DNA of 64,000 bases from a virus (lineage: Duplodnaviria; Heunggongvirae; Uroviricota; Caudoviricetes). Each line of letters opens with the position of its first letter. The first letter of the stretch is position 1. The translations under genes were made by a program, and so were the position numbers. The notes beneath the pieces are model-generated. The model was not told the DNA's origin, did not search any database, and worked only from the letters and a program-made list of their open reading frames with translations. The DNA lies in IMG/VR virus record IMGVR_UViG_3300035034_002381, positions 1 to 64,000 of that record, one strand, 5' to 3'. Shown here in pieces: positions 7,225 to 44,030 of the stretch.

Positions 7225-7425
7225 ATGGAAAGTTTTAAAAGTATACTCGAATCTAAAGATTCTGATAAACTCGCAAAAGAGATCAATAATGCAATCATTA
7301 AAATTGATGATTCTATGTCATACAAAGATTTTGCAGCTGCAGTTATCAAAATAATGAAAGAAGAATACGGAGAACACCTATATACAGAATTCTTAGGAAT
7401 TTTACAAAAAAATCTAAAGAAATGA
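7225..7425 (+). CDS. small hypothetical protein; N-terminus MESFKSILESKDSDKL is paralogous to the 47731 ORF
   Basis: 66 aa; conserved 16-aa N-terminus shared with MKSFKKVLENKEADKL. Confidence 0.45.
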   Translation: MESFKSILESKDSDKLAKEINNAIIKIDDSMSYKDFAAAVIKIMKEEYGEHLYTEFLGILQKNLKK

Positions 7426-7601
7426 AGACTTTTAAAGAATTTATAAACGAATCGGAATATATGGTGGTGAATGGAAAGAAAACGCCGAGATAACAGCTAG
7501 ACAATTATCTTCTGGGTTGGTTATTAGCATTGAACCTACAAAAATAAAAGTATTAGTTAGTACATCATCAGAACTAGATATCGATGTTTTAATGTCTAAC
7601 A

Positions 7602-7790
7602 ATGATAAAATTGAATATAGAAGTTATAGACGACTCGCCGTATACAAAACCAGGATCTACACAAAGTTTTATTAGAATAAAACTGAATGGAAAAACTATA
7701 TATGAAGATAAAGGAGCTAATTATGCCGACGCACCAAGTGACGAGATTATTAGAGCTTATGAAGAGGTGTATAAAATTAGATCCAAATAG
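7602..7790 (+). CDS. small hypothetical protein
   Basis: 62-aa ORF. Confidence 0.3.
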   Translation: MIKLNIEVIDDSPYTKPGSTQSFIRIKLNGKTIYEDKGANYADAPSDEIIRAYEEVYKIRSK

Positions 7791-8026
7791 GGAATACGTT
7801 TGCTTCTATACACAATAATTCAAAATATAAGACTTGAAAATGAAAAGATTTTTTAGAGTTGCTAGTATTACATCATTAATTGTTCTGTGTCTATTCACAT
7901 TTTTAATGCACGCGTTTCCATGGGAATGGTCAACTGATATTAGATTATATTGCATATTCACAATGGTTTCTTCATCGATTGTCGCGTATTTCGTAAGCCG
8001 TTAATAAAATTTAACATATAGATAAC

Positions 8027-8056
8027 AGTGGGACTTTTATAGTCCCACTTTTTTTG
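8027..8056 (+). terminator. rho-independent terminator (AGTGGGACT-TTTA-TAGTCCCACT plus T-run)
   Basis: Hairpin then TTTTTTT. Confidence 0.7.
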
Positions 8057-8273
8057 TTTATATTTATACTGAATTTAAAAACTCAAAATAAATGTCAAGA
8101 GAAAATATGGATTATATGGGCGATGCAGTCTACGCAGAATACACGGGATGGTCAATTGATTTACGAGTCAATGATCATCGGAATCCTGTCGCTGTCGTTT
8201 TAGAAGAACTAGTCTTACAAAATTTAGTCGATTTTGCTAGACGAAAAGGTCTTAAAATCAAATAAATTATGAA

Positions 8274-8636
8274 ATGAAAGTAATTTATTCTGCAGTTTTT
8301 GTTGATAAGTCTACCCTTATAAAAAAATTTAAACCGGTATTTGATAACATTCATGCTCATCACATGACTATTGAATTTAGACCAGAATCAACAGATAATC
8401 TGGATATTGACAAAAATTACAAATTGAAAATTATCGGTAGATTAATTACAGACAAAGTTGATGTTCTTCTTGTTGATGATGGAGGCATCAGTAAAAATGA
8501 ATTCCCACACATTACAATTTCTATAGCTGATGGTGTTAGGCCTTTCGAAAGTAATACCGAAATCAAAAATAATTATTCCAAAATAACTAAACTTCGTGGA
8601 GAAATAACAGGCAAAATCGGAGTTTTCACCGCATAA
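8274..8636 (+). CDS. hypothetical protein
   Basis: 120-aa ORF. Confidence 0.45.
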   Translation: MKVIYSAVFVDKSTLIKKFKPVFDNIHAHHMTIEFRPESTDNLDIDKNYKLKIIGRLITDKVDVLLVDDGGISKNEFPHITISIADGVRPFESNTEIKNNYSKITKLRGEITGKIGVFTA

Positions 8637-8645
8637 ATCTTAACT

Positions 8646-8870
8646 ATGAAAAAGGTAACATTTCTAATTTTAATATTGTTCAACATTAATTTATGGGCAC
8701 AAGAACAACCAGATACAGTTTATGTTCTGAAAAGTTTTACAGTCAAAGGTGTGAGAGCTGATCCTAAAACACCGATCACACAAAAAACAATAGACAAGAA
8801 ATTTATTGAACGCAATTATTTTGGTCAAGAAATTCCTATTCTTTTAAATACCACACCATCAATAAATTAG
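8646..8870 (+). CDS. short secreted protein resembling the N-terminus (signal peptide plus start of plug region) of a Bacteroidetes TonB-dependent receptor; probable truncated host-derived fragment
   Basis: MKKVTFLILILFNINLWAQ signal, then TVKGVRADPKTPITQKTIDKKFIERNYFGQEIPILLNTTPSIN, then stop at 74 aa. Confidence 0.4.
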   Translation: MKKVTFLILILFNINLWAQEQPDTVYVLKSFTVKGVRADPKTPITQKTIDKKFIERNYFGQEIPILLNTTPSIN

Positions 8871-9119
8871 GTATGGAAAAATCTCAAGACTTTGAACCAA
8901 CCGAACCAGAAGAAATGTATTAAAATAATTGAAAATAACTCTTCCAGATTAAAACTTTTTGATTACTTTTGTATATATACTGTATATTTAAACAAACAAT
9001 AATGAAAACACAAATCAACATAACTACCAGTTATTCTTTAAGAAGCTTATGTACGTCGCTGAGACTATATGAGACAGGGTATCTATGTTGATCAAACATA
9101 TTTTTGATTACAAACTAAA

Positions 9120-9151
9120 CCCTGTCTATTTAATTAGACAGGGTTTTTTTA
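9120..9151 (+). terminator. rho-independent terminator (CCCTGTCTA-TTTA-ATTAGACAGGG plus TTTTTTT)
   Basis: Hairpin then T-run, immediately before tRNA block. Confidence 0.7.
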
Positions 9152-9154
9152 TTT

Positions 9155-9245
9155 GGAAGATAAAGCAGCTGCATTGGAGCGGCGACTAGCCTTGAAAACT
9201 AGGTCTCGGAGAAATCTGGGTGGGGTTCGAGTCCTCTGTCTTCCT
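9155..9245 (+). tRNA. tRNA-Ser (TGA), class II
   Basis: Acceptor GGAAGAT/GTCTTCC, anticodon loop CTTGAAA, long variable arm, T-arm GGGG-TTCGAGT-CCTC. Confidence 0.6.
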
Positions 9246-9277
9246 CAAAGTTTTAGTTCATTGACATATTAATATTA

Positions 9278-9361
9278 GAGGATGCGGTAATGGTGGTTAT
9301 TACAGTATCTTGGAAAGGTACCGATCGTTTATTCGGTCAGGGTTCGACTCCCTCATCCTCT
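9278..9361 (+). tRNA. tRNA-Ser (GGA), class II
   Basis: Perfect acceptor GAGGATG/CATCCTC, anticodon stem GTATC/GGTAC with loop TTGGAAA, variable hairpin CCGATCG...CGGTC, T-arm AGGG-TTCGACT-CCCT. Confidence 0.65.
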
Positions 9362-9397
9362 GCTATGTTCTTCTTAGAATAACTAATTTATGTAAAT

Positions 9398-9414
9398 GTG
9401 AGTTCGAATCTCAT
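9398..9414 (+). other. isolated T-arm-like hairpin GTGAG-TTCGAAT-CTCAT preceded by CTTAGAATA motif
   Basis: Seen in sequence. Confidence 0.3.
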
Positions 9415-9492
9415 CAAATGCTTTTAGCATCTGTAGCCAAATGGTTAGGCAATATACTTGAAATATATAACAAACGATTAGAAGAACAACAT

Positions 9493-9565
9493 GCTTCCAT
9501 AGTATAAAGGTTCATTATTCCTGTTTTGTAATCAGGCGATATCGGTTCGATTCCGATTGGGAGCT
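9493..9565 (+). tRNA. tRNA-Thr (TGT)
   Basis: Acceptor GCTTCCA/TGGGAGC, anticodon stem CCTGT/TCAGG (one mismatch) with loop TTTGTAA, T-arm ATCGG-TTCGATT-CCGAT. Confidence 0.65.
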
Positions 9566-9714
9566 CAATGAATATGATGTTTATTTAGATCCTAAAAATG
9601 ATTATCTTATTGGTATAGATAGTAAAAAAATTGAAAAGGTCGAAGAATTGTATAATGTGCGTAATAATAGACAAGGATAATTTATCTTGGAATGATATTC
9701 AAAATAAAATAAAT

Positions 9715-9795
9715 GTTTCAGTGGTGGAATGGTAGACACGTCGGTCTTAGGAACCGATGCCGAAAGGCGTGAGAGTTCGAGTCTCTCCTGGAATA
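9715..9795 (+). tRNA. tRNA-Leu (TAG), class II
   Basis: Acceptor GTTTCAG/CTGGAAT, anticodon stem TCGGT/ACCGA with loop CTTAGGA, variable arm TGCCGAAAGGCGT, T-arm GAGAG-TTCGAGT-CTCTC. Confidence 0.75.
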
Positions 9796-9796
9796 C

Positions 9797-9876
9797 ACTC
9801 TGGTGGATTAGGTAAATTGGTACAGCTAAACGGCTTAGACCCGTATCCCTTCTGGGTTCGAATCCCAGTCAGAGTA
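9797..9876 (+). tRNA. atypical 80-nt tRNA (family member A), anticodon loop CTTAGAC (TAG)
   Basis: Acceptor ACTCTGG/TCAGAGT, extended D-region GTGGATTAGGTAAATTGGTACAGCTAA, stem ACGG/CCGT, T-arm CTGGG-TTCGAAT-CCCAG. Confidence 0.55.
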
Positions 9877-9881
9877 CAAAT

Positions 9882-9961
9882 GCTCCTGTGGTTTATGTAA
9901 ATTGGCACAGCTAAGCGGCTTAAACCCGCAACCTTTATGGGTTCGAGTCCCATCAGGAGTA
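9882..9961 (+). tRNA. atypical 80-nt tRNA (family member B), anticodon loop CTTAAAC (TAA)
   Basis: Acceptor GCTCCTG/CAGGAGT, D-region GTTTATGTAAATTGGCACAGCTAA, stem GCGG/CCGC, T-arm ATGGG-TTCGAGT-CCCAT. Confidence 0.55.
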
Positions 9962-10056
9962 CAAAAGTTTATCAACGTCTTGAGTCAAGTTGGATGATGA
10001 CAAAAAGGCTAACGGCAGAAGTGAATCCATCGCACTGTGTTACATAAACTTTATCT

Positions 10057-10129
10057 GGCCAGGATTCTCAATTGGACGGGACTCTGTCTTCTAAACAGAT
10101 GTTTGTGGGTTCGAATCCCATCTTGGTCT
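10057..10129 (+). tRNA. tRNA-Arg (TCT)
   Basis: Acceptor GGCCAGG/CTTGGTC, anticodon stem TCTGT/ACAGA with loop CTTCTAA, T-arm GTGGG-TTCGAAT-CCCAT. Confidence 0.65.
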
Positions 10130-10135
10130 CTAAAC

Positions 10136-10209
10136 GCAGGTATACCTAAGTGGTTTAAAGGAGCGGATTGCAAACCCGTTATTCATTGGTTCGAATCCAA
10201 TTACCTGCT
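10136..10209 (+). tRNA. tRNA-Cys (GCA)
   Basis: Perfect acceptor GCAGGTA/TACCTGC, anticodon loop TTGCAAA, T-arm ATTGG-TTCGAAT-CCAAT. Confidence 0.7.
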
Positions 10210-10214
10210 CACTT

Positions 10215-10297
10215 GGAAGGTAACTTGATGGTGATAGAGGTAGTTTGCTAAACTACTGGCCGTTTACTCGGTCGAGGTTCGATTCCTCTGCCTTCCG
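10215..10297 (+). tRNA. tRNA-Ser (GCT), class II
   Basis: Acceptor GGAAGGT/GCCTTCC, anticodon stem GTAGT/ACTAC with loop TTGCTAA, variable hairpin GGCCG...CGGTC, T-arm GAGG-TTCGATT-CCTC. Confidence 0.65.
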
Positions 10298-10301
10298 CTA
10301 T

Positions 10302-10379
10302 GCTCCTGTGGATTATGTAAAAGCACAGCTAACACCTTGAGGAGGTGATCCTTTGTGGGTTCGAGTCCCGCCAGGAGTA
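10302..10379 (+). tRNA. atypical 78-nt tRNA (family member C), anticodon loop TTGAGGA (GAG)
   Basis: Acceptor GCTCCTG/CAGGAGT, D-region GATTATGTAAAAGCACAGCTAA, stem CACC/GGTG, T-arm GTGGG-TTCGAGT-CCCGC. Confidence 0.55.
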
Positions 10380-10419
10380 CAAAGAAGCAAAGAGTTAGTT
10401 AGGTTAGACTGGCTTGTTA

Positions 10420-10470
10420 TGTGGTGAAATTGGTAAACGCGAGCGCTTTGGTGCTTAGTAACCTTAACAC
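10420..10470 (+). other. partial tRNA-like paralog (GTGGTGAAATTGGTAAACGC D-region shared with the 10788 element; no T-arm)
   Basis: Sequence similarity only. Confidence 0.25.
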
Positions 10471-10479
10471 TTCTTATTT

Positions 10480-10553
10480 GCTGAGTTAGTATAGTCGGTT
10501 TATTACGATACCCTGGTACGGTATTAACACCAGTTCGATTCTGGTACTCAGCT
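10480..10553 (+). tRNA. tRNA-Thr (GGT)
   Basis: Perfect acceptor GCTGAGT/ACTCAGC, anticodon stem ATACC/GGTAT with loop CTGGTAC, T-arm ACCAG-TTCGATT-CTGGT. Confidence 0.75.
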
Positions 10554-10565
10554 CATGAAAAATAT

Positions 10566-10645
10566 GCCTCTGTGGATTATGTAAATTGGCACAGCTAACG
10601 GTTTCAAACTCCGATCTTTTATGGGTTCGAATCCCATCAGAGGCA
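10566..10645 (+). tRNA. atypical 80-nt tRNA (family member D), anticodon loop TTCAAAC (CAA)
   Basis: Perfect acceptor GCCTCTG/CAGAGGC, D-region GATTATGTAAATTGGCACAGCTAA, stem CGG(T)/(T)CCG, T-arm ATGGG-TTCGAAT-CCCAT. Confidence 0.55.
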
Positions 10646-10661
10646 CAAGTAGGAGAAATTT

Positions 10662-10746
10662 AGTCCAGTGGCGAAACAGGTATACGCACAAGATTTAAGC
10701 TCTTGCTTCCATTGAGGAATTGCGGGTTCGATTCCCGCCTGGATTA
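10662..10746 (+). tRNA. tRNA-Leu (TAA), class II
   Basis: Acceptor AGTCCAG/CTGGATT, anticodon stem CAAGA/TCTTG with loop TTTAAGC, variable hairpin TTCC-ATTGA-GGAA, T-arm GCGGG-TTCGATT-CCCGC. Confidence 0.7.
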
Positions 10747-10750
10747 CTAA

Positions 10751-10785
10751 GTTAGTACGGGTTCGATCCCCGTCTTGGCTACTAA
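10751..10785 (+). other. isolated T-arm-like hairpin ACGGG-TTCGATC-CCCGT (tRNA fragment)
   Basis: Seen in sequence. Confidence 0.3.
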
Positions 10786-10787
10786 AT

Positions 10788-10899
10788 TTGACCGTGGTGA
10801 AATTGGTAAACACACCCTTAAATCAGGGAGTATGAGAATATGTACTTGAAGCTGACGCAGAACATCATACATATGTAGGTTCGAATCCTATCGGTCGAA
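10788..10899 (+). ncRNA. 112-nt tRNA-like RNA with a ~44-nt insertion: a 7-bp hairpin ATATGTA...TACATAT between the anticodon-arm-like region and the T-arm
   Basis: Acceptor TTGACCG/CGGTCGA, D-region GTGAAATTGGTAAACAC, CCCT-TAAATC-AGGG, inserted hairpin 10838-10874, T-arm GTAGG-TTCGAAT-CCTAT. Confidence 0.45.
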
Positions 10900-10904
10900 C
10901 AAAT

Positions 10905-10978
<74 letters not shown>

Positions 10979-10984
10979 CTATCT

Positions 10985-11014
10985 AAAACTTTATTCAATT
11001 TCCATAATATAATG
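10985..11014 (+). promoter_or_regulatory. promoter-like motif AAAACTTTATTCAAT-N5-CATAATATAAT; same motif at 21071-21099
   Basis: Two near-identical copies, each about 30 nt upstream of an ATG. Confidence 0.45.
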
Positions 11015-11261
11015 TGTAACTAAACTTTATAGAAATGGAAAAAATACTAATGTCTGAAATTTTGACTTATGACAACTTCGACGACGGTTTACCTGAAGAA
11101 TATGAATTTGTCGATTCTGAACAAACATATTTTGATGGTGAAAAAGGCTTTGTTAATATCGAAGCTATTATCAGAAGAGAATCAGACTCACAATTTTTAA
11201 AGTAAAATACACCGATTATGGAAAAGGTGAAAATGATCTTATGGAAAGTGTGGGCGAACCT

Positions 11262-11327
11262 GTAACTCAAAAATCCAAAACAATTTTCTACTATGTAACT
11301 CAAAAATCCAAAACAATTTTCTACTAT
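11262..11327 (+). repeat. perfect tandem direct repeat, 2 x 33 bp (GTAACTCAAAAATCCAAAACAATTTTCTACTAT); second copy ends in the ATG of the 11326 ORF
   Basis: Exact duplication seen in sequence. Confidence 0.9.
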
Positions 11328-11598
11328 GAATAGTATGACCTTTTTATTAGGCATTACGTATGTTATCGGATACTTTTTAAGTATCATAATCCTAAAAAGA
11401 TTTCACCATATTTTGGATATTCCAGATTATAATTCATATCCAAAATATAATGAATATTCAAGCAATGCACAAGCATACACAATGTGGTCAATTGTATGGC
11501 CGTTATTTTGGGTCTTAAAAATCATAGTTCTTCTTTTCGAAAAACTTATTAATTTAACTAAATATATACTAAATGGAAACTCAAGCTCAAGAAAGTAA
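11326..11598 (+). CDS. small putative membrane protein
   Basis: 90 aa with hydrophobic segments; start codon embedded in tandem repeat. Confidence 0.35.
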   Translation: MNSMTFLLGITYVIGYFLSIIILKRFHHILDIPDYNSYPKYNEYSSNAQAYTMWSIVWPLFWVLKIIVLLFEKLINLTKYILNGNSSSRK

Positions 11599-12508
11599 TA
11601 GAATAATCAAAGAAATTCATTCTTCTTTTTATTCAATGGATCAAGAAACTGATACATATCTTCAACGCCAAATTCAAGCTGCGTATGACGAATCTATCAA
11701 AGGCTCTTTAGAGAAGACTATCAAAAAATATGGTTTTAATAATGCCAAAAACTCTGACATTTTTGATAAAGCATTACTTGAAAGTCGGGAAGAATTAAAT
11801 GATGTCTTAAACGAATGTTCAGTGACATATCCAGGTAAAAAGTTTATTACTGATGAACAAATAGCACAGCTTTGTATCAAATATAATTTATTACTAACAA
11901 CACCAGATAGATTTATTGGTGAAATACCAGAACGTAATATCCAAGAGTTGAACGACTTTAATCCAAAAGGTAGCGAAAAAAAGGCGTTTTTTGATCCCAA
12001 AGTTTTTTATAAATTATATAACTTTATAAGAGAATATGAAGAGAAGCATTATTATATGAATAAAAATCTAAAAAAATCTATTGCAATGATTTATCGATCA
12101 TTTATGAATCATAGTAACATGGATTCAATACTTTTTCCAGATAATAATAAATATATTGTTCATGGTGTCAATGAAGATAAATCAATCACCACAACTGAAT
12201 TAGGTATTCAAACAGCAAAGAAAATATCTGAAGAATTATCTAAGAAAGAAAGAAATTCTGTACCTATTTTACCGTTGTTTTCACAAACTATGATAGCAGC
12301 GACATCTGATTTACTTGATATTCCTAAACTAGGATTGATCAAGAATAAAAGAAATGAACTTGTTTTAGGTCTTAATTCAAAACAATTTAAAGAAAATTTT
12401 CTACCTGATCCAATTGTACTACATAAAGTAAAACGTGGTGCTATTATTATAACTGCTTGGGGCTTGGAATCTCAAGATGAACTAGTATTCAATCCTATTA
12501 TTAATTGA
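11573..12508 (+). CDS. hypothetical protein
   Basis: 311-aa ORF. Confidence 0.55.
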   Translation: METQAQESNRIIKEIHSSFYSMDQETDTYLQRQIQAAYDESIKGSLEKTIKKYGFNNAKNSDIFDKALLESREELNDVLNECSVTYPGKKFITDEQIAQLCIKYNLLLTTPDRFIGEIPERNIQELNDFNPKGSEKKAFFDPKVFYKLYNFIREYEEKHYYMNKNLKKSIAMIYRSFMNHSNMDSILFPDNNKYIVHGVNEDKSITTTELGIQTAKKISEELSKKERNSVPILPLFSQTMIAATSDLLDIPKLGLIKNKRNELVLGLNSKQFKENFLPDPIVLHKVKRGAIIITAWGLESQDELVFNPIIN

Positions 12509-12512
12509 TAAT

Positions 12513-12695
12513 ATGGAATATACGTGTATAAAGGTAGTAACTATTACAGAAGGTAATTTACCCCCTAGGATAGTAGTTGAATTGAAATCTGGAAATATTA
12601 AAATCGAAATAGAAATAAATGAAGACTTTGAAAAGGTCCCTGAAGATCTATTGAAACTTAAACCGGGCGAAACGTATTCGCTTTTAATAAATTAA
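12513..12695 (+). CDS. small hypothetical protein
   Basis: 60 aa, tightly packed after previous gene. Confidence 0.35.
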   Translation: MEYTCIKVVTITEGNLPPRIVVELKSGNIKIEIEINEDFEKVPEDLLKLKPGETYSLLIN

Positions 12696-16747: not shown

Positions 16748-17058
16748 TGAGAAAAATCTATATATATAAACTAATAATATGTATGGACACAGAATCACAT
16801 AGCTCGTTTAGCGAATCTTTACAAGATAGAAATTACTATCTAGTCAAAGATTACTTACATGAACTAGGATTTTTGCCCTCACAATATTATATTAAAGATT
16901 ATCAGAATTCAATTGAAGTTGATTTTGATGATAATCAAGCCGTCTTTTATATTATAGAAGATATCAAAAAGACAAAATACATAGAGCATTTTGATGTTGA
17001 TTATAAAAAGCCGGCGAATTCAAGAAGACATACTGCAGTGTTTAATTTCACTCAGTAA
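16747..17058 (+). CDS. hypothetical protein
   Basis: 103 aa. Confidence 0.4.
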   Translation: MRKIYIYKLIICMDTESHSSFSESLQDRNYYLVKDYLHELGFLPSQYYIKDYQNSIEVDFDDNQAVFYIIEDIKKTKYIEHFDVDYKKPANSRRHTAVFNFTQ

Positions 17059-17119
17059 AAAATGAGAATAAAAAAAATCATTTTATCCTTGATATATAAA
17101 AAAACAAATATAGAAAAAG

Positions 17120-19195
17120 ATGAACAAAGATTCTAATGTATTATTAATACTTGAAAGATCTTCATCAAATCTAGATGTTAACAAGGAATCGGGTGATTAT
17201 ATTCTCGAAGGTATTTTTGCTCAATTTGGAGTTGAAAACAATAACAAAAGGATTTATGAGGAAAAAGAGTATTTACCACATCTCGAATACTTAAAAAAGA
17301 AAATTTCAGAAAATCGATTGATGGGAGAACTTGATCACCCAGAAAAATTTGAAATTGCTTTAGACAAAGTATCTCACGTAATTGAGAATATTGAATATGA
17401 TCAAGCAAAACGCCAGATTAAAGGGCGTGTACGTATTTTAGATACGCCATCCGGAAAAATCGCAAAGAGTCTAATCGACTCTAATATTCCTATTAGTATT
17501 TCATCACGAGCTGCTGGTTCTGTGAGTGAAAATAAAACTGTTTCTATTAAGAGAATTTTTACTTATGATTTAGTTGCTGATCCAGGTTTTGAAGATGCAC
17601 AATTATCAAGAATAAATGAATCATTTGGTTTAGACAACGAAAATAATCTACAAATTTTTGATGCTTCTAGATGGGACAACAATTTTTCGTTTGATGAAAA
17701 AGAAAAAGAAAAGCCTGTTGAGGCAATAAAAGAAAATAAAGAAAATACTACAGATATGAAAGAATTTGTGACAATTGAAAGCATGGAACGCTATTCATTA
17801 ATGGTCAAAGAAGAAATTGCTAAAATCAATACACGATTAGAAACTCTGAATGAGAGTAATGCTAATTCTGATGAAACAGCAGAACTTAGAAAAACCGTTG
17901 ATAATTTAGTAGGGTATGTTAATGAAATGGCTACCGAAATTAATCAAAACAGAGAATACATGTCATATACTGCTGAAATGCTTGACGAAAGTATTTCTTG
18001 GTCAGAAAATGAGATCGGTAATCAAGTTACTAAATTAATTGAATATACTGAATCTGAATTGGCTGTTCATCTTGATGGTTTAATTGAACACAATAACTAT
18101 CTTGCAGAAAAATTAAACACGACTATTGGATACGTTAATGAAGAATTGGCTCCAATTTTAGATGAGTCTATTAATCACAATGATTATTTAGTTGAACAAA
18201 TTGCTAATAACCGAAAATATACTGAGTATCTTGCTGAAAATGCTGTAGACTCAACAAATTTTGATTCGTTAGTAGAATATACTGAACATGTATATGAAAA
18301 TGCTGCTGGAAAATTTGAAGGTAAAATTAATGAATCTGCAACTGCTGAGGATGTAATTAAAAAACATAAACTTAAAACACATCACGATGTTGCTAAGTTT
18401 ATAGGAGATTTTTATGATTTACCAGATACAATTAAAGGATCTACCGATAAATTCACATTTAAAGACGTTGAGGACAACGTAATTAAAGTTGATGGTAAAG
18501 CAGGAACAGTAGACGGTAAAAAATTATCTCTGGCGGGATTGGTTGATCTTATGTCAGGTGGTGATTTTGATCTTCTTATTGAAAATCAAGCTAATAAAAT
18601 TAACGAAAATAAAAACGTATCAACAGATATTGAAAATCGATACATGAGTATCAATGAAAAAATTGACGCGGCTCTTGAGCAGATCAAGAAAACAAAGACT
18701 GAAGAAATCACAGAGTCTAAACGTCATCCTTTCACCAAACTACTCAACGAAAGTAATAGAGCTGCTTTCACTGAGTTAGGAAAAACCGAAAAAGAAAAGG
18801 TTTCAAAAGCTCTAAATGAAAACGGTATTTTAAGTACTGTAAAACTTAACGAAAAATTCACTTCATTGTTAGAAGGTAATTTCGAAATTGTTGAAGAGCC
18901 TAAATGGTTATCTGAAGCACCAGACAAGTATAAAGCTATTTTTGAAAGTTTGAATGAGGAAACTCAGGATAAACTTAGAGCTCAAGCTTCATGGTACGAA
19001 GGTAAACTTAAATCTCCTTATCAAATCGAAAATTTCTGGGCAACTAGAGGACTGAACGAAGACGTTGAGTTGAAGAATCTGAAAGACGATGCTGATGTAA
19101 AACTTATTAAAGAAAGTAATGATAGATCTAAAGATCTGGGTTATTCTTCTGATCGAGTTGCTGCAATTAAACAAGGTCTGAAAAGATTCAAATAA
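17120..19195 (+). CDS. prohead maturation protease (HK97/S78-like N-terminal domain) fused to a scaffolding-like coiled-coil region
   Basis: N-terminal ~150 aa with GELDHPE and ISISSRAAGS resembling the S78 His and Ser motifs; remaining ~540 aa acidic, helical and repeat-rich; immediately upstream of capsid gene. Confidence 0.55.
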   Translation: MNKDSNVLLILERSSSNLDVNKESGDYILEGIFAQFGVENNNKRIYEEKEYLPHLEYLKKKISENRLMGELDHPEKFEIALDKVSHVIENIEYDQAKRQIKGRVRILDTPSGKIAKSLIDSNIPISISSRAAGSVSENKTVSIKRIFTYDLVADPGFEDAQLSRINESFGLDNENNLQIFDASRWDNNFSFDEKEKEKPVEAIKENKENTTDMKEFVTIESMERYSLMVKEEIAKINTRLETLNESNANSDETAELRKTVDNLVGYVNEMATEINQNREYMSYTAEMLDESISWSENEIGNQVTKLIEYTESELAVHLDGLIEHNNYLAEKLNTTIGYVNEELAPILDESINHNDYLVEQIANNRKYTEYLAENAVDSTNFDSLVEYTEHVYENAAGKFEGKINESATAEDVIKKHKLKTHHDVAKFIGDFYDLPDTIKGSTDKFTFKDVEDNVIKVDGKAGTVDGKKLSLAGLVDLMSGGDFDLLIENQANKINENKNVSTDIENRYMSINEKIDAALEQIKKTKTEEITESKRHPFTKLLNESNRAAFTELGKTEKEKVSKALNENGILSTVKLNEKFTSLLEGNFEIVEEPKWLSEAPDKYKAIFESLNEETQDKLRAQASWYEGKLKSPYQIENFWATRGLNEDVELKNLKDDADVKLIKESNDRSKDLGYSSDRVAAIKQGLKRFK

Positions 19196-26562: not shown

Positions 26563-26973
26563 ATGAAAGCCTTTACTTATGTTATAGATATTGATGACAC
26601 TATCAATATTACCGATAGAGATGAAAATAATATAGGACTGTATTCTCAGTCTCGGCCGATACTTAAAGTTATCAATAAAATTCGAAGACTTAAAAAAGAA
26701 GGCCACAAAATCATACTTTTTACTGCTAGAGGTATGCGTACATTTAATAATGATGTCAAAAAAATCGAAGATTTTCATAGAGAAACACTCGTTAAATGGT
26801 TAAATGACCATGAAGTCCCTTATGACGAACTACAGTTCGGTAAACCATGGGGCCCCCATGTAATATATGTCGATGATCGTGCTGTTACTATTAACCAATT
26901 TGTTTTGGGTGGTCCCGAAAATCACAGAAGTTATACACACATTAACAAAACAGTTATAAATGATGAATTATAA
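26563..26973 (+). CDS. HAD-superfamily phosphatase
   Basis: DxDxT motif YVIDIDDTI near N-terminus; 136 aa. Confidence 0.5.
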   Translation: MKAFTYVIDIDDTINITDRDENNIGLYSQSRPILKVINKIRRLKKEGHKIILFTARGMRTFNNDVKKIEDFHRETLVKWLNDHEVPYDELQFGKPWGPHVIYVDDRAVTINQFVLGGPENHRSYTHINKTVINDEL

Positions 26974-28660
26974 AGTAATTATTCCCGCGGCAGGGAAGGC
27001 ATCAAGACTCAAGCCTTTATCTTCTTCAATGTCAAAATCAATGGTGCCAGTAAATGGTAAACCAATAATTTCATATATTCTTGATCAACTGTTTGAACTA
27101 GGAAATCCATTTCAAATAGTTATTGTTGAAAATGAGCTCGGTGATATTCAAGATTTTGTTAAAAACGCATATCCAAATTATTATGAAGAATCCCGTATTC
27201 TTTTTGCAACTCAAAAAGAAAGGTTAGGTCCTTTGCATGCTATTGAAATTGGTGCAAATAGGTTTCCGGAAAATGATAACATGCCAATTATGGTTTGGCT
27301 CGGAGATACAATCTGTTTGGAAATGGGTGAGTTGCCAGTTAATGAATCTTTATTAATTACATCGCCTGTCGCCGATTATAAAAGATGGTGTTTAGTAGAT
27401 AACGAGAATGTCTTCTATGATAAACCAGATAACAAACCAAGCACTAACCAAGCTTTAATAGGTATATATTATTTCCATGATTTTAAGGCCTTCTACGAGG
27501 CCCTAGATAAGGGAATGCAAGCTCCTATGATTAAAGATGAACATCAAATATCGGCTTTATTAGAAGCATATAAAAAACAACATATATTCAAAATCAGAAA
27601 AACTGATGAATGGTTTGATTGTGGTGAGTTACATACATTTTATGAATCTAAAGCAAGACTTCTTGGAAGATCTGCCAGGTCATTTAATAGTCTAGAAGTA
27701 AATACATTCCATAACACAATTACTAAATCTTCATTAACATTCGAAGGTAAACTGAAAATTGAGAATGAAAAAAATTGGTATTTAGGTTTACCTGAGAATA
27801 TTCAGATTCTCACACCTAGAGTATTAAAATCAAATTCAGGTACGCTAGTTATGTCGCAAGAACCTGGAACACCTCTTAATGAAATGTGGCTTTATGAGGA
27901 TTTGACTGATGATACATGGAAAAGAATAATTGATAAAACGTTACTTATACACAATAAAATTTTCTATCAATCTAGATATATTCCTAAATCTTCTAAATTA
28001 GATAGATTTGCTGCAAGAAAGGAAATGTATCTGACTAAAAATATTGACAGATTGACAGAAATTTCATTCCTGCCTTTTGCACAGAAAAATATAAAAATGA
28101 TTCGAGATTTTGTGCGGGTTACTGGTGAATTATTAATTGAAGATGAAGGTCGTTGGTCGCCACATTTTCATGGAGATTCTCACATGGGTAATATTTTATT
28201 TGAACCTTTACAGGGAAGTATGAAATTTTTGGATCCACGTGGAAAGTTTGGAAATATCGTAGGCATTGAGGGCGATATGTATTATGATATGGCTAAAATT
28301 GCGCAAGATTTTCTTTTACGCTATCCTGAAATTTTATCTGGTCATTATCATTTTAGTGGAGATAATTTTGACCAGCTTGAATTTTATAGAAATGACGAGA
28401 GATCTAAAACTATGCTAAAACATTTCAGAAAAAGAATTGGTGAATATGGTTATATTCCTAATCTTGTTTTAATGTTAGCAACTGTGCTTATCATAACTTG
28501 TATACCTTTTCATAAAGACGATCCAGAAAGACAAAAAGCATTTTGGTATATGGCAGTAAATGTTATTAAAGAAAGAGGGTGGAATATCCAACTCGAAGAT
28601 CATCTCAAAAAACAAAAATTACAATTATCAGACAAGATACATAATCTATACAACTTATAA
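26960..28660 (+). CDS. bifunctional sugar/alcohol-phosphate nucleotidyltransferase (LicC/RmlA-like N-terminus) plus choline/aminoglycoside-kinase-like domain (LicA-like C-terminus)
   Basis: N-terminus KVIIPAAGKASRLKPLS...MVPVNGKPIISYILDQL (GxGxR nucleotidyltransferase motif); C-terminus HFHGDSHMGNILFEP and IEGDMYYDMAKIAQDF (kinase-fold catalytic motifs). Confidence 0.6.
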   Translation: MMNYKVIIPAAGKASRLKPLSSSMSKSMVPVNGKPIISYILDQLFELGNPFQIVIVENELGDIQDFVKNAYPNYYEESRILFATQKERLGPLHAIEIGANRFPENDNMPIMVWLGDTICLEMGELPVNESLLITSPVADYKRWCLVDNENVFYDKPDNKPSTNQALIGIYYFHDFKAFYEALDKGMQAPMIKDEHQISALLEAYKKQHIFKIRKTDEWFDCGELHTFYESKARLLGRSARSFNSLEVNTFHNTITKSSLTFEGKLKIENEKNWYLGLPENIQILTPRVLKSNSGTLVMSQEPGTPLNEMWLYEDLTDDTWKRIIDKTLLIHNKIFYQSRYIPKSSKLDRFAARKEMYLTKNIDRLTEISFLPFAQKNIKMIRDFVRVTGELLIEDEGRWSPHFHGDSHMGNILFEPLQGSMKFLDPRGKFGNIVGIEGDMYYDMAKIAQDFLLRYPEILSGHYHFSGDNFDQLEFYRNDERSKTMLKHFRKRIGEYGYIPNLVLMLATVLIITCIPFHKDDPERQKAFWYMAVNVIKERGWNIQLEDHLKKQKLQLSDKIHNLYNL

Positions 28661-28670
28661 AAAACATACT

Positions 28671-28949
28671 ATGAGCAAAGATTTAGAAAAAGCTAGTGAG
28701 ACACTAGAAGAAACATTGACAGATATCCAAAAGGTGGCAGCTGCTAATTTTTATGATATTGTACAAATTAGTTTAGCCGATAAAGAAGGTAAAGTAGTTG
28801 GTAAAGCTTCTATGAAATATGAAGATATTTTAGCAATGACTAAGATGCATACACAAGATTCTTCACACGTTGTAGGAATGTTATTTCATGCAGTCGAATC
28901 AGAAACTCGTAACAAATTACGAGAAGAAAAAGAAAATGAAGCCAAATGA
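28671..28949 (+). CDS. hypothetical protein
   Basis: Internal ATG of listed ORF 28560..28949 chosen to avoid overlap with upstream gene. Confidence 0.4.
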   Translation: MSKDLEKASETLEETLTDIQKVAAANFYDIVQISLADKEGKVVGKASMKYEDILAMTKMHTQDSSHVVGMLFHAVESETRNKLREEKENEAK

Positions 28950-29134
28950 TTTTTAAAGTAAGAGTAGAAGAAAAGAGCATAGAAGATGTTATAGAACTTA
29001 TTGAAACAGGAGAAGGGAAAAAAGGTCTCCAATTTGATCTATATAATGAAAAACCATATTTTTCACATGTAGAAATTTTCGTTAATACTGATGATTTCTA
29101 CACATTAAAGGATTATTTAAATGAACAAACCTAA
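28946..29134 (+). CDS. small hypothetical protein
   Basis: 62 aa; ATGA overlap. Confidence 0.35.
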   Translation: MIFKVRVEEKSIEDVIELIETGEGKKGLQFDLYNEKPYFSHVEIFVNTDDFYTLKDYLNEQT

Positions 29135-31064
29135 GACTATATGTCTTGTTATGATTGTAAAAAATGAGGCAAAAAATTTACCTCGTTGTTTTTCTACGAT
29201 CAAACATATTATTGATTATTGGGTAATTGTTGATACTGGTTCAACTGATAACACACAGGAAGTTATACAGAAAGAGTTAGCCGATATTCCTGGTGTATTA
29301 ATGGAAAGACCGTGGGTCAATTTTGGTCATAATAGATCCGAATCTTTGGCTTTTGCTAAAAACAGAGCAGATTATCTTTTGCTTTGTGATGCTGATGAAC
29401 AAATTATACCTACACACAATTTTGACAAATCTGAGTTGACTCTTGATCAATATCATTTAAGATATAATGGGAGCTTAGATTATATGGTTCCTTATCTTAT
29501 TAAGTCTAATTTGGCTTGGAGATTTGTAGGAGTTACCCATGAATTTTTGACAGCAAGTGACACAAAATCTTCAGGTGAGATTAAAAGCCTTTCAATTAAA
29601 GATTGGGGAGATGGTGGAGCAAAATCTGATAAATTTGAAAGAGACATTAAATTGCTCGAACAAGGTTTGATTGATGAACCGAAGAATGTTAGGTATATGT
29701 TTTATCTAGCAAATTCTTATAAGAATACTAAGGATTTTGATAACGCAATCAAATGGTATAAAAAACGTATCGATGCAGGGGGTTGGATAGAAGAAGTTAC
29801 ATGTTCATATGAATATATGGGAGGATGTTATCAGCAGAAAAATGACCACGGGAATGCGATTAAAACATGGATAGATGGTTATGAATTTAATCCTTCTCGT
29901 GCTGAGTGTTTATATGAGGCAGGTAAATTACTTCGTGAAGAAAATAAGAATAGAATAGCTTACGAATTTTTACAAAAGGCTAAAGAAATTCCATATCCTA
30001 CTAACGATAGATTATTTATCAAAAGAGATGTTTATGAATATTTGATAGATTATGAACTGACTATTTGTGCATATTATGTTAAACCAGAATATGATATGAC
30101 CGAGACATTTAAAAGGCTAATCTTTTGGCCAAGTCATTTACAACAAAACATTATACAAAATTTTAAGTTTTGGGCTAAAGATTTGAATACACTTATAGGT
30201 CAAGAGGAAAGTATGATCTTGGCTAAAGATTTGATTAGTAATGATTTGGTTGAGGGTTTTACACCTAGTTCCCCATCAATTCTTTTTCATAAAAATCGCA
30301 AGTACATAAATGTGCGCCAAGTATCATATAAAATTGACGAAAATGGTAAGTATTTAGATCGTGCAAGTGGAGGTCATTGTAAACATGTGAATACAATTAA
30401 CACAATGTATTGGACTGATGGACCCTCATATGACACGGAAAATTTTAAACCCAATGATATTTCTACTAAACATGTGAATGGTATTGAAGATCTAAAACTA
30501 TATACACACAATGGAGTAATCAAATACACTGGGACAAAATGGTTGGATTATAACAAAATTTCTATAGTTATTGGTGAGTATACTAAAGAAGGTCTAGATA
30601 ATTATGCTATTCTAGAGTCTCCAGAAGGAAGGAATGTTGAAAAAAATTGGGTACCGTTTGGATTAGATAATGAAGAACTTTTTGTATATGATTGGAATCC
30701 AATAAAAATTGGAAGAATCAAAAATAATAAACTAGTAATCAAAAATTTAAAAACTAGTTTTCCTAACTTGCGTGGATCAGCTCCTGGTAAACTTATTGGA
30801 GATCATATCTATTTTTTATGTCATTTTGTAGAATATTCTACACCAAGAATTTACTATCATATCTTCATTAAAATGCATAAAGATAATTGGGAAAAAATCG
30901 AGATTTCTAAACCGTTTGTTTTTGAAAAACCACAAATAGAATATTCAGTAGGATTTGATTATAATATTAAGACTGATGATATACATATTGCATATAGTGT
31001 AAATGATTCGAATGCAAGAATCAAATCTTATTCACAAACACAATTTCAAAAACTTTTTACTTAA
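29121..31064 (+). CDS. family 2 glycosyltransferase with TPR-like middle region and extra C-terminal domain
   Basis: TICLVMIVKNEAKNLPRCFSTIKHIIDYWVIVDTGSTDNT is typical of GT2 N-terminal DXD fold. Confidence 0.6.
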   Translation: MNKPKTICLVMIVKNEAKNLPRCFSTIKHIIDYWVIVDTGSTDNTQEVIQKELADIPGVLMERPWVNFGHNRSESLAFAKNRADYLLLCDADEQIIPTHNFDKSELTLDQYHLRYNGSLDYMVPYLIKSNLAWRFVGVTHEFLTASDTKSSGEIKSLSIKDWGDGGAKSDKFERDIKLLEQGLIDEPKNVRYMFYLANSYKNTKDFDNAIKWYKKRIDAGGWIEEVTCSYEYMGGCYQQKNDHGNAIKTWIDGYEFNPSRAECLYEAGKLLREENKNRIAYEFLQKAKEIPYPTNDRLFIKRDVYEYLIDYELTICAYYVKPEYDMTETFKRLIFWPSHLQQNIIQNFKFWAKDLNTLIGQEESMILAKDLISNDLVEGFTPSSPSILFHKNRKYINVRQVSYKIDENGKYLDRASGGHCKHVNTINTMYWTDGPSYDTENFKPNDISTKHVNGIEDLKLYTHNGVIKYTGTKWLDYNKISIVIGEYTKEGLDNYAILESPEGRNVEKNWVPFGLDNEELFVYDWNPIKIGRIKNNKLVIKNLKTSFPNLRGSAPGKLIGDHIYFLCHFVEYSTPRIYYHIFIKMHKDNWEKIEISKPFVFEKPQIEYSVGFDYNIKTDDIHIAYSVNDSNARIKSYSQTQFQKLFT

Positions 31065-32362
31065 TGTACATTATAAAAAACAATAAACTTGAATCTACTG
31101 ATAATATCGATTTATTTTTTAATGAGATAAATGTTGGACAACATATTGCTAAATATGGATATTTCGAAAGTGACCTTATTAATTGGTTAAAGCTTACATA
31201 TAAAAATAATGATAAAATCTTTTTAGATTTAGGAGCGCACATAGGTTCATATTCAATAGAATTAGCAGAAAATTTTCATTCAGTTCATTCATTTGAACCT
31301 AATCCAACAGTCTATAATCATTTATGTGCTAATGTTGCATTAAAGAGATTATCAAATAGGGTATTTCCACACAGAGTTGCATTATCGGATAATAAATCTA
31401 AACAGCCATATTATGAGAGATCCAAAGATGGTGGAGGTAATGGAATTGAAGTTGTAAGAGAGAACGATAAGCACTCATTCTTTGTAGAATCTAAATGTTT
31501 AGATGATTATTCTTTCGATAAAGAAATCGGTTTGATTAAAATTGATATCGAAGGTCATGAGTATAAAGCTATTTTGGGTGCATATGAAACTTTGAAAAAC
31601 TCATATTTCCCACCTATAATTTTCGAATCTTGGGCGCAAAATACACACCCAGAATATTCACAAGAAATACTTTTAGAAATTCGTGATAAAACATTTGATG
31701 TATTAAAGGATTATGGATACACTGTTAAATCCATAAGTGGATATAATGAAATGTTTATTGCTGTTCAAGAGCGTGAAAAATCTCAAGAAGATATTATTGT
31801 TGAAGGTCTTTTGACAGATAAGTTAGACGTATGGCTTAACTCACCTGGAGGGACTCGAAGCAATTATATAGCCGATGTTCTAGAAAAAAGTAATTTAAGA
31901 GTGAGAAACGAATCCTGGTATAAGTATGGTTGTCATTGGACTTCTCCTTTATTTGAAAGGGAATTTAAAACTACAAGATTGTTTTGCTACACTAGCGATA
32001 TCGGACTCGCATTGACAAGTCAGTTAAATGCCAATACTATTGATAAACTGAATTTTGCAGATTTTTATAATGAACCATGGGATTTATATCGATGGATACA
32101 AAATATTAAAAAACAAGTGATTAACTGGTCGGATCCTGGCGTATTCTTTTTAAATACCGACTATTTAAATGATAAAGATATTCAGTCTGAATTTAAAACT
32201 CTTACTGGAGATAGTTTAGACATATCAGATTTCAGACTTGACCGTAAATCTAAAAAATTACATCCTGCATTAATACAATACATGGATGAGATTAATGAGA
32301 TTAATGAGTTATTAGCAAAATTACCTAATGCCGGTTTTGGCGGAGAAGTTGATGAAGGTTAA
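31064..32362 (+). CDS. FkbM-family SAM-dependent methyltransferase, two-domain
   Basis: FLDLGAHIGSYSIELAE (FkbM glycine-rich motif) in N-terminal domain. Confidence 0.5.
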   Translation: MYIIKNNKLESTDNIDLFFNEINVGQHIAKYGYFESDLINWLKLTYKNNDKIFLDLGAHIGSYSIELAENFHSVHSFEPNPTVYNHLCANVALKRLSNRVFPHRVALSDNKSKQPYYERSKDGGGNGIEVVRENDKHSFFVESKCLDDYSFDKEIGLIKIDIEGHEYKAILGAYETLKNSYFPPIIFESWAQNTHPEYSQEILLEIRDKTFDVLKDYGYTVKSISGYNEMFIAVQEREKSQEDIIVEGLLTDKLDVWLNSPGGTRSNYIADVLEKSNLRVRNESWYKYGCHWTSPLFEREFKTTRLFCYTSDIGLALTSQLNANTIDKLNFADFYNEPWDLYRWIQNIKKQVINWSDPGVFFLNTDYLNDKDIQSEFKTLTGDSLDISDFRLDRKSKKLHPALIQYMDEINEINELLAKLPNAGFGGEVDEG

Positions 32363-32816
32363 AAATATGAAATTAGAAATTGATTTTAGTTTGAGCGATT
32401 TAAAAAATAATTGGAAACCAAAAATTAAGATTTGGTTATCATGGGAGTACTAAAGGTGATAAGATAGAATTTGAAATGTATTTTGATGAATATCACAGTG
32501 AATGGACTTCTTTTAAAGATAAAGCGTTTAAAGGATTTGTTCTTAAAAAAATAGATAGAATATTAGACGAAAATTGTTAAAAGTCAAATATTTTGATTAT
32601 ATTTATCCTAAATTAATAACAATGGAATATAAATATAATGAGCTGGAAAAACTTCTTATTCTTATGGGTAAAAAATATCCAAATGACCATGATCTTGGCA
32701 ATCAAGCGCGTAAACTTATTCAAAAGATCAAAGAAAAATAAATTCAATCCAATAGCTGATTGGAGGCCGTTAACTGAGGAAGAATTAAAGTCAAATCTTT
32801 TTAAACCACCCTTTTA

Positions 32817-33455
32817 ATGAACATATTTGTTCTTGACGAAAATGTCAAAAAATGTGCCGAATATCATTGTGATAAACATGTTGTCAAAATGATTACTGAG
32901 CATAATCAAATTTTGGGTTCGATTTCTTATTTACGTAGAGGTATTTCTAAAAAATCGGAAATAACTGATGAATTTATTCAACAACATTTCCAAAATTTTC
33001 CTAGAAAAAAATTAGCAATTGATATGGATTCATTACCCATTGCTGATCATTCGCCACTTATCAAAAAATTATGGAATTTTGTAAAACCCGCAGAATTGTC
33101 TTGGCCGTACGGTATTGGTTATAAAAATCATCCATGTACACAATGGGCTAATGCGTCTAAAGAAAATTATGATTGGCTATGCTCACTCAATCTTGAATTG
33201 TGTAAAGAATATACTAAACGATATAATCGTCGACATGCTGGTGAGGATATTACTCAATGGTATATTGAAAACGCACCATATCTACCGAATTCTGGCATGA
33301 CTCCATTTGTTTTAGCTATGCCTGATGATTGTAAATCTGATGATCCAGTTGAATCTTATCGAATTTACTACATTTATCATAAATATAAATTTGCCAAATG
33401 GAAAACAAAAGTTCCAAATTGGTATATAAACGTTATAAAACATCAAGAAATATGA
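32817..33455 (+). CDS. hypothetical protein
   Basis: 212 aa. Confidence 0.5.
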   Translation: MNIFVLDENVKKCAEYHCDKHVVKMITEHNQILGSISYLRRGISKKSEITDEFIQQHFQNFPRKKLAIDMDSLPIADHSPLIKKLWNFVKPAELSWPYGIGYKNHPCTQWANASKENYDWLCSLNLELCKEYTKRYNRRHAGEDITQWYIENAPYLPNSGMTPFVLAMPDDCKSDDPVESYRIYYIYHKYKFAKWKTKVPNWYINVIKHQEI

Positions 33456-34009
33456 CAATCAAACACAGAATAACTGATTCTGAAAATACCCATGTTATGC
33501 TCGACATAGAAACTTTGGGTACTGGTGCTAATGCAATCATTTTACAGATTGCAATGGTCAAATTTGGTCTTAACGATCAAAATGGTGAAACAATGAAAAC
33601 TATAGTTAATGTTTTTCCTTGTATCAAAGAACAACATGATGAAGGTAGAACAATGACTTTCGATACAGTTAACTGGTGGCTTGGTCCAGATCATGTGAGC
33701 ATATTAGCAAATCTGCGGAAACAGGAAACATCCAATTTGGTAGATGTTAGATCTCAAATAGCTAAGCACATGGAAGAATTTAGGAAATCGGGAGTTCATC
33801 TGTGGGCAAGGTCACCCAAATTTGACATCAAGATTTTAGAAGATTTTTTAGGAACAGATGTGCCAGAACATTCCCGAAGGCACCAAAGAGATGTTAGAGA
33901 ATATGAATTTATTTCGGGCGATCGCCCAGGTGCATCCCATGATGCAGAAGATGATTGTATTCAACAAATTATATTAGTCACTAATGTTATTCAAAGACTT
34001 TTTATATGA
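33452..34009 (+). CDS. DEDDh 3'-5' exonuclease (DnaQ/oligoribonuclease-like)
   Basis: Exo I motif VMLDIETLG; C-terminal HDAEDD (H-x4-D); start at internal ATG with 4-nt overlap. Confidence 0.55.
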   Translation: MTIKHRITDSENTHVMLDIETLGTGANAIILQIAMVKFGLNDQNGETMKTIVNVFPCIKEQHDEGRTMTFDTVNWWLGPDHVSILANLRKQETSNLVDVRSQIAKHMEEFRKSGVHLWARSPKFDIKILEDFLGTDVPEHSRRHQRDVREYEFISGDRPGASHDAEDDCIQQIILVTNVIQRLFI

Positions 34010-34122
34010 TAACCTCGATAGTAGAAATTATTAAAGAATCTCTAATTGGTAAATCAGTTATAGTTGCCGAGTATTACCCGGATAACAATGAGGGAAATTA
34101 CAAATTCTAAAATAAAGTTAAC

Positions 34123-35989: not shown

Positions 35990-35995
35990 AAAGAT

Positions 35996-37714: not shown

Positions 37715-37790
37715 TGGAACAAGTTACATAATTTTCTAAAATAAACTGATTCTATTAAAACTTTTCAAGTCTAGATTAATATAAAATATA

Positions 37791-39107: not shown

Positions 39108-39110
39108 ATT

Positions 39111-40319: not shown

Positions 40320-40321
40320 AT

Positions 40322-42398: not shown

Positions 42399-42416
42399 AC
42401 AAAATAAACAAAACAA

Positions 42417-43178: not shown

Positions 43179-43196
43179 ACAAAGAAAATAGAAAAT

Positions 43197-43976: not shown

Positions 43977-44030
43977 TGCATTTTAAAACTTTTTATTAAT
44001 GTATTAATATAAACTTTAATATACTTTTTT

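Follow-up and report, generated by a model that had tools for sequence, protein, structure and literature searches.

The long variable arm is, in the statement of one review, found in tRNA-Leu everywhere but in animal mitochondria. In E. coli, leucine identity is set by the discriminator A73, the A15-U48 pair, G18G19 and A20a, with the long arm and the anticodon both dispensable, and the animal mitochondrial tRNA-Leu, which have no long arm, are still recognised via A73 and A14 (review PMC9976931). The allo-tRNAs and other novel cloverleaves from metagenomes also occur in phages, and some carry leucine anticodons; they have 8/4 or 9/3 acceptor/T configurations, long variable arms and serine identity (Mukai et al., PMC5389517). 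Here we describe four short tRNA-like genes, m1 to m4, located between positions 9797 and 10645 of a 64,000-nucleotide (nt) stretch of the Caudoviricetes record IMGVR_UViG_3300035034_002381, which we call the window. From comparison with their relatives we consider it likely that the four genes are functional leucine isoacceptors made by the phage, with an architecture that is conserved in phage and metagenome sequence and absent from the cellular genomes scanned, and that the host leucyl-tRNA synthetase (LeuRS) is the enzyme that most likely charges them.

Four paralogous genes in the tRNA array

The window has a G+C content of 32% and contains a dense tRNA array on the plus strand, spanning 9155-10979. 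The major capsid protein that it encodes belongs to the T4 Gp23 type, and the nearest homologs, at about 40-43% amino acid identity, are those of Lak megaphages and of the 462-kb uncultured phage LR756500. Within the array, the first-pass annotation had described four paralogs without a long variable arm, with 4-bp anticodon stems and the leucine anticodons TAG, TAA, GAG and CAA, interleaved with two class II tRNA-Leu genes at 9715 and 10662, and this description held throughout. The four genes start at the positions given there and aligned with almost no gaps at a mean column identity of 83%. A covariance model built from 45 sequences (R1) scored them at 78.1-96.0 bits, compared with 35.9 bits for the best ordinary tRNA of the window, so the resemblance is far above chance. 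R1 found exactly four family members in the window.

The anticodons of m1 to m4 are read in 7-nt loops, each with T33 and a purine at position 37, which is G in m3, the most deviant and lowest-scoring copy. The anticodon stems have 4 bp with A.A at position 27-43, and the variable regions are 6 nt long. The discriminator A (A73 in m1) is followed by CAA in m1 as in the other window members, and CCA is not encoded; most relatives elsewhere do encode it. Between acceptor stem and anticodon stem lie 25 nt in m1, m2 and m4 and 23 nt in m3, compared with 19-20 nt in both neighbouring class II tRNA-Leu. An extended D-region had been reported on first reading, and the extra length is real; the D-arm itself, on the other hand, turned out to be of normal leucine type, and the additional nucleotides form a 7-nt insertion ahead of it. 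A cassette-diversified family of tRNA-like genes, which had also been suggested, is not needed, since paralogs that differ mainly in the anticodon arm can arise by duplication and divergence or by homogenisation of the tRNA body.

Occurrence of the family

Relatives were collected with an exact search pattern, the conserved 17-nt core GTAAATTGGNACAGCTA. It matched relatives in 16 viral-contig loci on 15 distinct contigs of 7 to 379 kb, and many more in metagenome contigs, whose count is a lower bound; the two scans of viral and metagenome contigs together gave at least 57 family-like sites. Same-locus copies found by the model and the members from two cultured phages were added, and all family counts below rest on the resulting 62 distinct members (63 hits) unless stated. 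The cultured phages, Pseudomonas phage PHB09 (Otagovirus, 95 kb) and Synechococcus phage BUCT-ZZ01 (Kyanoviridae, 156 kb), were the only ones in which sensitive blastn with short queries showed members; in both records the family genes are either unannotated or lie under an overlapping 'hypothetical protein'. The PHB09 gene is located at 17054-17133 of OK040171; the hosts of the two phages are Pseudomonas syringae and Synechococcus elongatus PCC 7942, respectively. Across 39 loci, R1 scored family members at 66-102 bits and all other tRNAs at 48 bits or less, a clean split, and it also found divergent copies without the exact core.

The core pattern occurred at 111 sites in 185,579 bacterial and archaeal genomes (one per species), none of them a family member, in a scan that required the exact core and so leaves divergent cellular copies possible. 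Megablast of the region against GenBank phages gave no match. The 40-kb tRNA regions of the huge phages LR745206 and LR756500, the latter being the closest relative by capsid protein, contained no family member within those regions. On present evidence, the family appears to be restricted to phage and metagenome sequence.

Fold derived from covariation

The alignment for covariation, proposed in the first-pass annotation as a check, resolved an additional helix (helix X) and a leucine-type D stem. The acceptor stem has 7 bp, the T stem has 5 bp with a 7-nt GTTCRA loop, and the anticodon stem has 5 bp across the family with a loop of 7 nt, all as in the canonical cloverleaf. The acceptor and T stems were 99-100% paired and the anticodon stem 92%, with compensatory changes at all seven acceptor pairs, at four of the five T-stem pairs and at all five pairs of the anticodon stem. 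Position 27-43, mismatched in the window genes, is C-G in 34 of the 62 relatives. The core shared by the whole family consists of U8, helix X, a 3-nt linker, the leucine-type D-arm and A26.

In helix X, nt 9-11, which directly follow U8, pair with the 5' half of the 6-nt variable region (nt 50-52 in members of 80 nt), and overall the helix was 96% paired. Pair 10-51 was G-C in 44 members and A-U in 16; pair 11-50 was C-G in 29, U-A in 15, A-U in 11 and mismatched in 6; and pair 9-52 was divided between G-C (31) and G-U (30). This level of pairing was reached by none of 5,000 shuffles, and it fell to 29-71% when the partner columns were slid by 1-3 positions. RNAalifold found the helix unprompted. 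The base pairs of helix X swap between paralogs inside single phages, which points to several independent events. The helix turns the four-way junction of the cloverleaf into two three-way junctions.

The D stem consists of 3 bp (nt 15-17 with nt 29-31) and closes an 11-nt loop, AAAUUGGYACA. Covariation was seen at two of its pairs and came from divergent members: pair 16-30 was GC in 55, AU in 3, GU in 3 and UA in 1, and pair 17-29 was UG in 51, CG in 10 and GC in 1. Pair 15-31 was mostly U.U, with G-C in four members and G.U in one. The insertion ahead of the D-arm reads U8 G9 R10 N11 U12 W13 A14. The connector therefore has 7 nt, not the 2 nt (8-9) of the canonical cloverleaf, and in this respect the family departs from it. 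Of the 62 members, 59 had a variable region of 6 nt and three had one of 7 nt, below the 10 nt or more of a class II long arm, and the 7/5 acceptor/T configuration without a long arm differs from the 8/4, 9/3 or 8/5 of allo-tRNAs and tRNA-Sec-like molecules.

Two other D stems were tried and rejected. A hairpin TGTA/YACA (nt 15-18 with 25-28) had 11 mismatches at pair 17-26 in divergent members and no compensation, and the type of D stem drawn by ARAGORN (nt 10-13 with 27-30) was 60.6% paired and showed no covariation. Folding of single sequences by minimum free energy gave no cloverleaf (z-scores of -0.7 to -2.7) and was uninformative, a caveat to be set beside the predicted fold, for which the support is entirely comparative.

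The 8-9 connector of an ordinary tRNA descends along the D-stem groove, and the variable loop comes back up it; in the family both strands are longer and are predicted to form a helix together. Helix X may stack on the anticodon stem with the D-arm beside it, or the D-arm may stack as usual with helix X at its side; the absence of any nucleotide (0 nt) between position 43 and helix X fits stacking on the anticodon stem. With either placement the length of the limb would be roughly kept and G18G19 should still be able to reach the T loop. In the window genes, U12 could pair with A43, which would lengthen helix X to 4 bp.

Leucine identity elements and probable decoding

The anticodons of all 62 members were leucine anticodons (TAG 23, CAA 19, TAA 15, CAG 3 and GAG 2). 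As LeuRS is blind to the anticodon, this confinement to the leucine box must stem from decoding. U33 was present in 61 of 62 members, and a purine at position 37 and A73 in every one. A14, A15, A20a, U8 and the last two U of the variable region were invariant, and G18G19 was invariant outside m3. The residues of the tertiary identity set (A15-U48, G18G19, A20a and U8-A14) are kept, and the tertiary pairs themselves presumably form.

Where the fetched region of another phage includes a class II tRNA-Leu, the family anticodons complement it in most cases, for example with a class II TAA gene directly beside a family TAG gene. The one overlap seen outside the window was at locus L015, where family and class II genes share CAA. 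Several loci, including those of both cultured phages, had no class II tRNA-Leu in the fetched region. In the window, GAG and CAA are supplied by family members only, and the four anticodons jointly cover the six leucine codons, which are used at 47% (TTA), 21% (CTT), 14% (TTG), 10.5% (CTA), 4% (CTG) and 3% (CTC). No LeuRS, CCA-adding enzyme or RNA ligase was seen among the 30 largest open reading frames of the window.

Table 1. Coordinates of the family genes, their structural elements, the neighbouring class II genes and the short type B tRNA-Leu (74-76 nt). Positions are those of the window, except for type B genes, whose positions are those of the locus named.
Feature	Position	Strand	Evidence
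m1, tRNA-Leu-like, anticodon TAG (9836-9838)	9797-9876	+	R1, 85.8 bits
m1 helix X	9805-9807 with 9846-9848	+	Family alignment
m1 D-arm	9811-9827	+	Family alignment
m2, anticodon TAA (9921-9923)	9882-9961	+	R1, 96.0 bits; structure from family covariation
m2 acceptor stem	9882-9888 with 9954-9960
m2 helix X (GGT with ACC)	9890-9892 with 9931-9933
m2 D stem	9896-9898 with 9910-9912
m2 D loop (AAATTGGCACA)	9899-9909
m2 anticodon arm	9914-9930
m2 T arm	9937-9953
m3, anticodon GAG (10339-10341)	10302-10379	+	R1, 78.1 bits
m3 helix X	10310-10312 with 10349-10351
m4, anticodon CAA (10605-10607)	10566-10645	+	R1, 93.3 bits
m4 helix X (GGA with TCT)	10574-10576 with 10615-10617
Ordinary class II tRNA-Leu(TAG), long variable arm, abuts m1	9715-9796	+	ARAGORN; Rfam tRNA 54.4 bits
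Ordinary class II tRNA-Leu(TAA), long variable arm, 17 nt downstream of m4	10662-10747	+	ARAGORN; Rfam tRNA 52.6 bits
Type B tRNA-Leu, L025	1999-2073
Type B tRNA-Leu, L007	6377-6451
Type B tRNA-Leu, L040	2547-2622
Type B tRNA-Leu, L146	2400-2474
Type B tRNA-Leu, L146	7463-7537
Type B tRNA-Leu, L145	520-594
Type B tRNA-Leu, L110	2373-2446
Type B tRNA-Leu, L018	3850-3923
Type B tRNA-Leu, L129	2641-2714
Type B tRNA-Leu, L119	659-733

Other tRNA and gene features

Several further tRNA genes of the window have unusual variable arms. At 588-676, ARAGORN calls an 89-nt tRNA that combines a class I anticodon, GAT for Ile, with a body resembling class II: the variable arm is long (a stem of 4 bp and a loop of 5 nt), A73 is present and CCA is encoded. 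A tRNA-Ile(GAT) of ordinary form, 75 nt in length, is located at 437-511. Bacterial tRNA-Tyr is normally long-armed. The window has a 76-nt tRNA-Tyr(GTA) at 512-587 with a 5-nt variable loop and a 3-nt connector, which adjoins a normal class II tRNA-Tyr at 349-432. On the 344-kb viral contig IMGVR_UViG_3300032254_000001 (positions 6630-12584), seven tRNAs of 86-92 nt are long-armed, often with GAAA loops, and have Glu, Thr, Lys, Ile (two), Met and Gln anticodons; the variable arms of this contig look reshuffled among isotypes.

The array also contains fragments and partial genes. At 9364-9492, a 3' part made up of T-arm and acceptor strand (9398-9424) precedes its matching 5' part, which comprises the other acceptor strand, the D-arm and an anticodon arm (TGA) at 9427-9470. 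Both lie between the copies of an 8-nt inverted repeat (GTTCTTCT / AGAAGAAC), an arrangement that resembles a permuted or broken tRNA-Ser. A circularly permuted tRNA was considered here and rejected: the rejoined sequence was not called by ARAGORN, and 23 nt lie between the putative arm and the T stem. Decay or rearrangement of a gene probably produced this element. At 10748-10787 there is an orphan T-arm together with its 3' acceptor strand, and the tRNA-like gene that comes next, at 10788-10899 (Rfam tRNA, 35.7 bits), has a variable region enlarged by an insertion of roughly 45 nt. At 9155-9244 there is a class II tRNA-like gene with the anticodon loop CTTGAAA (TGA, Ser), which ARAGORN misses and which Rfam matches weakly as tRNA-Sec-like (30.9 bits).

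Phage BUCT-ZZ01 encodes a transfer-messenger RNA (tmRNA) at 2892-3292 of its locus L146 (about 116891-117291 of ON615601), matched by the Rfam permuted tmRNA model at 111.9 bits and given the tag peptide ANDETFSMALAA by ARAGORN, which further places a tRNA whose anticodon is CTA (amber) at 4327-4402 of that locus. In the window, genes for sugar and nucleotide metabolism extend over a long segment (26960-46681) and encode a nucleotidyl transferase, several glycosyltransferases, LicD, a pyruvyl transferase, an FkbM methyltransferase, NAPRTase, a C5 DNA methylase and a thymidylate synthase. This gene content suggests functions in the modification of DNA or of surface glycans.

Discussion

A non-canonical set of leucine isoacceptors was one of the readings raised in the first-pass annotation, and comparison now backs it through 62 relatives that have leucine anticodons, A73 and the D-loop and U48 elements, through compensatory changes in every helix, and through anticodons that elsewhere mostly complement those of class II genes. 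In the mechanism that we propose, host LeuRS would charge the family tRNAs via A73, A15-U48, G18G19 and A20a; we infer this because the elements that LeuRS reads are conserved, while the long arm and the anticodon are not needed. The charged tRNAs would decode the UUR and CUN codons of the AT-rich phage. Helix X, which would lie along the paths of the 8-9 connector and the variable loop beside the D stem, probably braces the core in place of the lost arm, and the L-shape would be kept. The four window genes encode no CCA, and their transcripts would therefore require 3' trimming and CCA addition.

Several observations weigh against functional leucine isoacceptors with this fold. By nearest-neighbour energies, the minimum-free-energy structure is 5-9 kcal/mol more favourable than the proposed fold, helix X is nearly energy-neutral, and its three-dimensional placement relative to the D stem goes beyond what sequence decides. 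The D loop of m3 has lost 2 nt (AAAAGCACA), including one G of G18G19, and the anticodon stem of m4 has U.U at the loop-proximal pair. The anticodons TAG of m1 and TAA of m2 repeat those of the class II neighbours. Two family-wide features are also unusual for bacterial tRNA-Leu: members with G36 mostly have A37, compared with G37 in the class II tRNA-Leu(TAG) at 9715, and a G1.U72 wobble occurs in 41 of 62 members.

That redundancy of anticodons in the window, together with the unusual shape and the existence of host defences that cut tRNAs, tRNA-Leu included, would suit tRNA-like RNAs acting outside translation, either as decoys that draw off a tRNA-Leu-directed nuclease or modification enzyme of the host, or as regulatory or priming elements. 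We regard this as improbable. A decoy would not need five leucine anticodons confined to the leucine box, nor U33, a purine at 37, A73 and a perfect T-arm and acceptor stem, and in other phages nothing else in the fetched region was found to encode a decoder of CUN or UUG.

Charging with an amino acid other than leucine, by which leucine codons would be recoded or mistranslated as proposed for allo-tRNAs and the nematode nev-tRNAs, is very improbable, although the architecture is non-canonical and other tRNAs of the same phages also combine arm and anticodon in unexpected ways, such as the long-armed tRNA with an Ile anticodon at 588-676. A73 and the leucine set of the D loop are kept, and the G3-U70 mark of alanine was seen in only 1 of 62 members. 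SerRS and bacterial TyrRS require a long arm, which counts against both enzymes. The leucine codons of the capsid gene also argue against recoding, as the residue aligned in homologs is Leu in 53% of cases and one of L/I/V/M/F in 75-84%.

The genes could also be ordinary tRNAs whose D loops are merely enlarged, folded as ARAGORN draws them and without a new helix, a view that we find barely credible. ARAGORN did give a conventional, if poor, D stem to m3, which it called as a 79-nt tRNA-Leu(gag), the only one of the four genes that it called. The Rfam tRNA model (RF00005, gathering threshold 29 bits) passed m2 (33.7 bits) and m3 (30.2 bits), matched m1 in part (21.9 bits) and had no plus-strand match to m4; with 5 of 25 relatives also passing, about a quarter were accepted, the best at 37 bits. 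Against this, the ARAGORN-type D stem was broken in all 11 sequences with A at position 10, and the same position-10 changes were matched by compensation in the variable region. ARAGORN calls overlapped 13 of the 63 members, of which four were misfolded to Ser(act), Arg(acg) or Thr(agt) and most others had shifted ends. Because standard software misses most of the family, phage tRNA repertoires and analyses of codon coverage undercount leucine tRNAs. Decaying duplicates in a rearranging tRNA array, to which the broken pieces at 9364-9492 and 10748-10787 and the D-loop deletion of m3 might point, are scarcely tenable for genes that are conserved across very different phages with compensation in every helix and a near-invariant core, and decay would apply to m3 at most.

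Returning to functional leucine isoacceptors, the candidate reasons for the scaffold are an escape from host enzymes that read ordinary tRNA-Leu and plain tolerance by LeuRS. A more speculative proposal, which we think unlikely as it stands, is that helix X is a phage adaptation that provides a shape accepted by host LeuRS, EF-Tu and the ribosome but missed by tRNA-Leu nucleases or by modification or quality-control enzymes that read the long arm or a normal core, or alternatively a shape read selectively by a phage factor. As part of the same tentative proposal, the scaffold would belong to a wider reshuffling of variable arms in large-phage tRNAs, with long arms on Ile, Lys, Glu, Thr, Met and Gln and none on some Leu and Tyr.

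The family, which is common in phage and metagenome sequence, is a conserved exception to the long-armed tRNA-Leu. It offers a natural test of what LeuRS, EF-Tu and the ribosome need from the core of a tRNA, and a candidate scaffold for tRNA engineering.

Comparison with known tRNAs

No description of the architecture was found in the literature searched, reviews of tRNA identity and of non-canonical tRNAs included, a coverage that is incomplete and leaves a prior description possible. The helix between the connector and the variable loop is apparently new. The family differs from the allo-tRNAs in its 7/5 configuration, the lack of a long arm and its leucine identity marks, and tRNA-Sec likewise differs in acceptor/T geometry and in having a long arm. 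Animal mitochondrial tRNA-Leu share the absence of the long arm; they are organellar, with degenerate D and T loops and neither insertion nor extra helix, whereas the phage family keeps G18G19 and TTCRA.

The mitochondrial tRNA-Ser(AGY) that lack a D-arm have been modelled with pairing between the connector and the variable region that extends the anticodon stem. Pairing of connector and variable region beside the anticodon stem is thus common to those tRNAs and the family, but the D-arm is lost there and kept here as a branch.

The same phages also contain a second type of short tRNA-Leu (type B, Table 1), which shares with the family a leucine anticodon, A73, the leucine-type D-arm and the absence of the long arm. 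In type B, the connector has the normal 2 nt, the variable loop has 5 nt and helix X is absent; these genes scored 51-62 bits with the Rfam tRNA model, compared with 37 bits or less for the family.

Bacterial class II tRNA-Leu, probably the nearest counterpart in function, shares with the family the leucine anticodons, A73, A14, A15, G18G19, A20a, U48, an ordinary T-arm and the 7-bp acceptor stem. The D-arm of the family is also of the bacterial tRNA-Leu type, a 3-bp stem with an 11-nt loop, in which AAAUUGGYACA can be set against GAAUUGGUAGA of E. coli. The family is distinguished from class II tRNA-Leu by a 6-nt variable region without the long arm, by the 7-nt insertion before the D stem, by helix X, by A37 in most members beside G36, and by G1.U72 in two thirds of the members.

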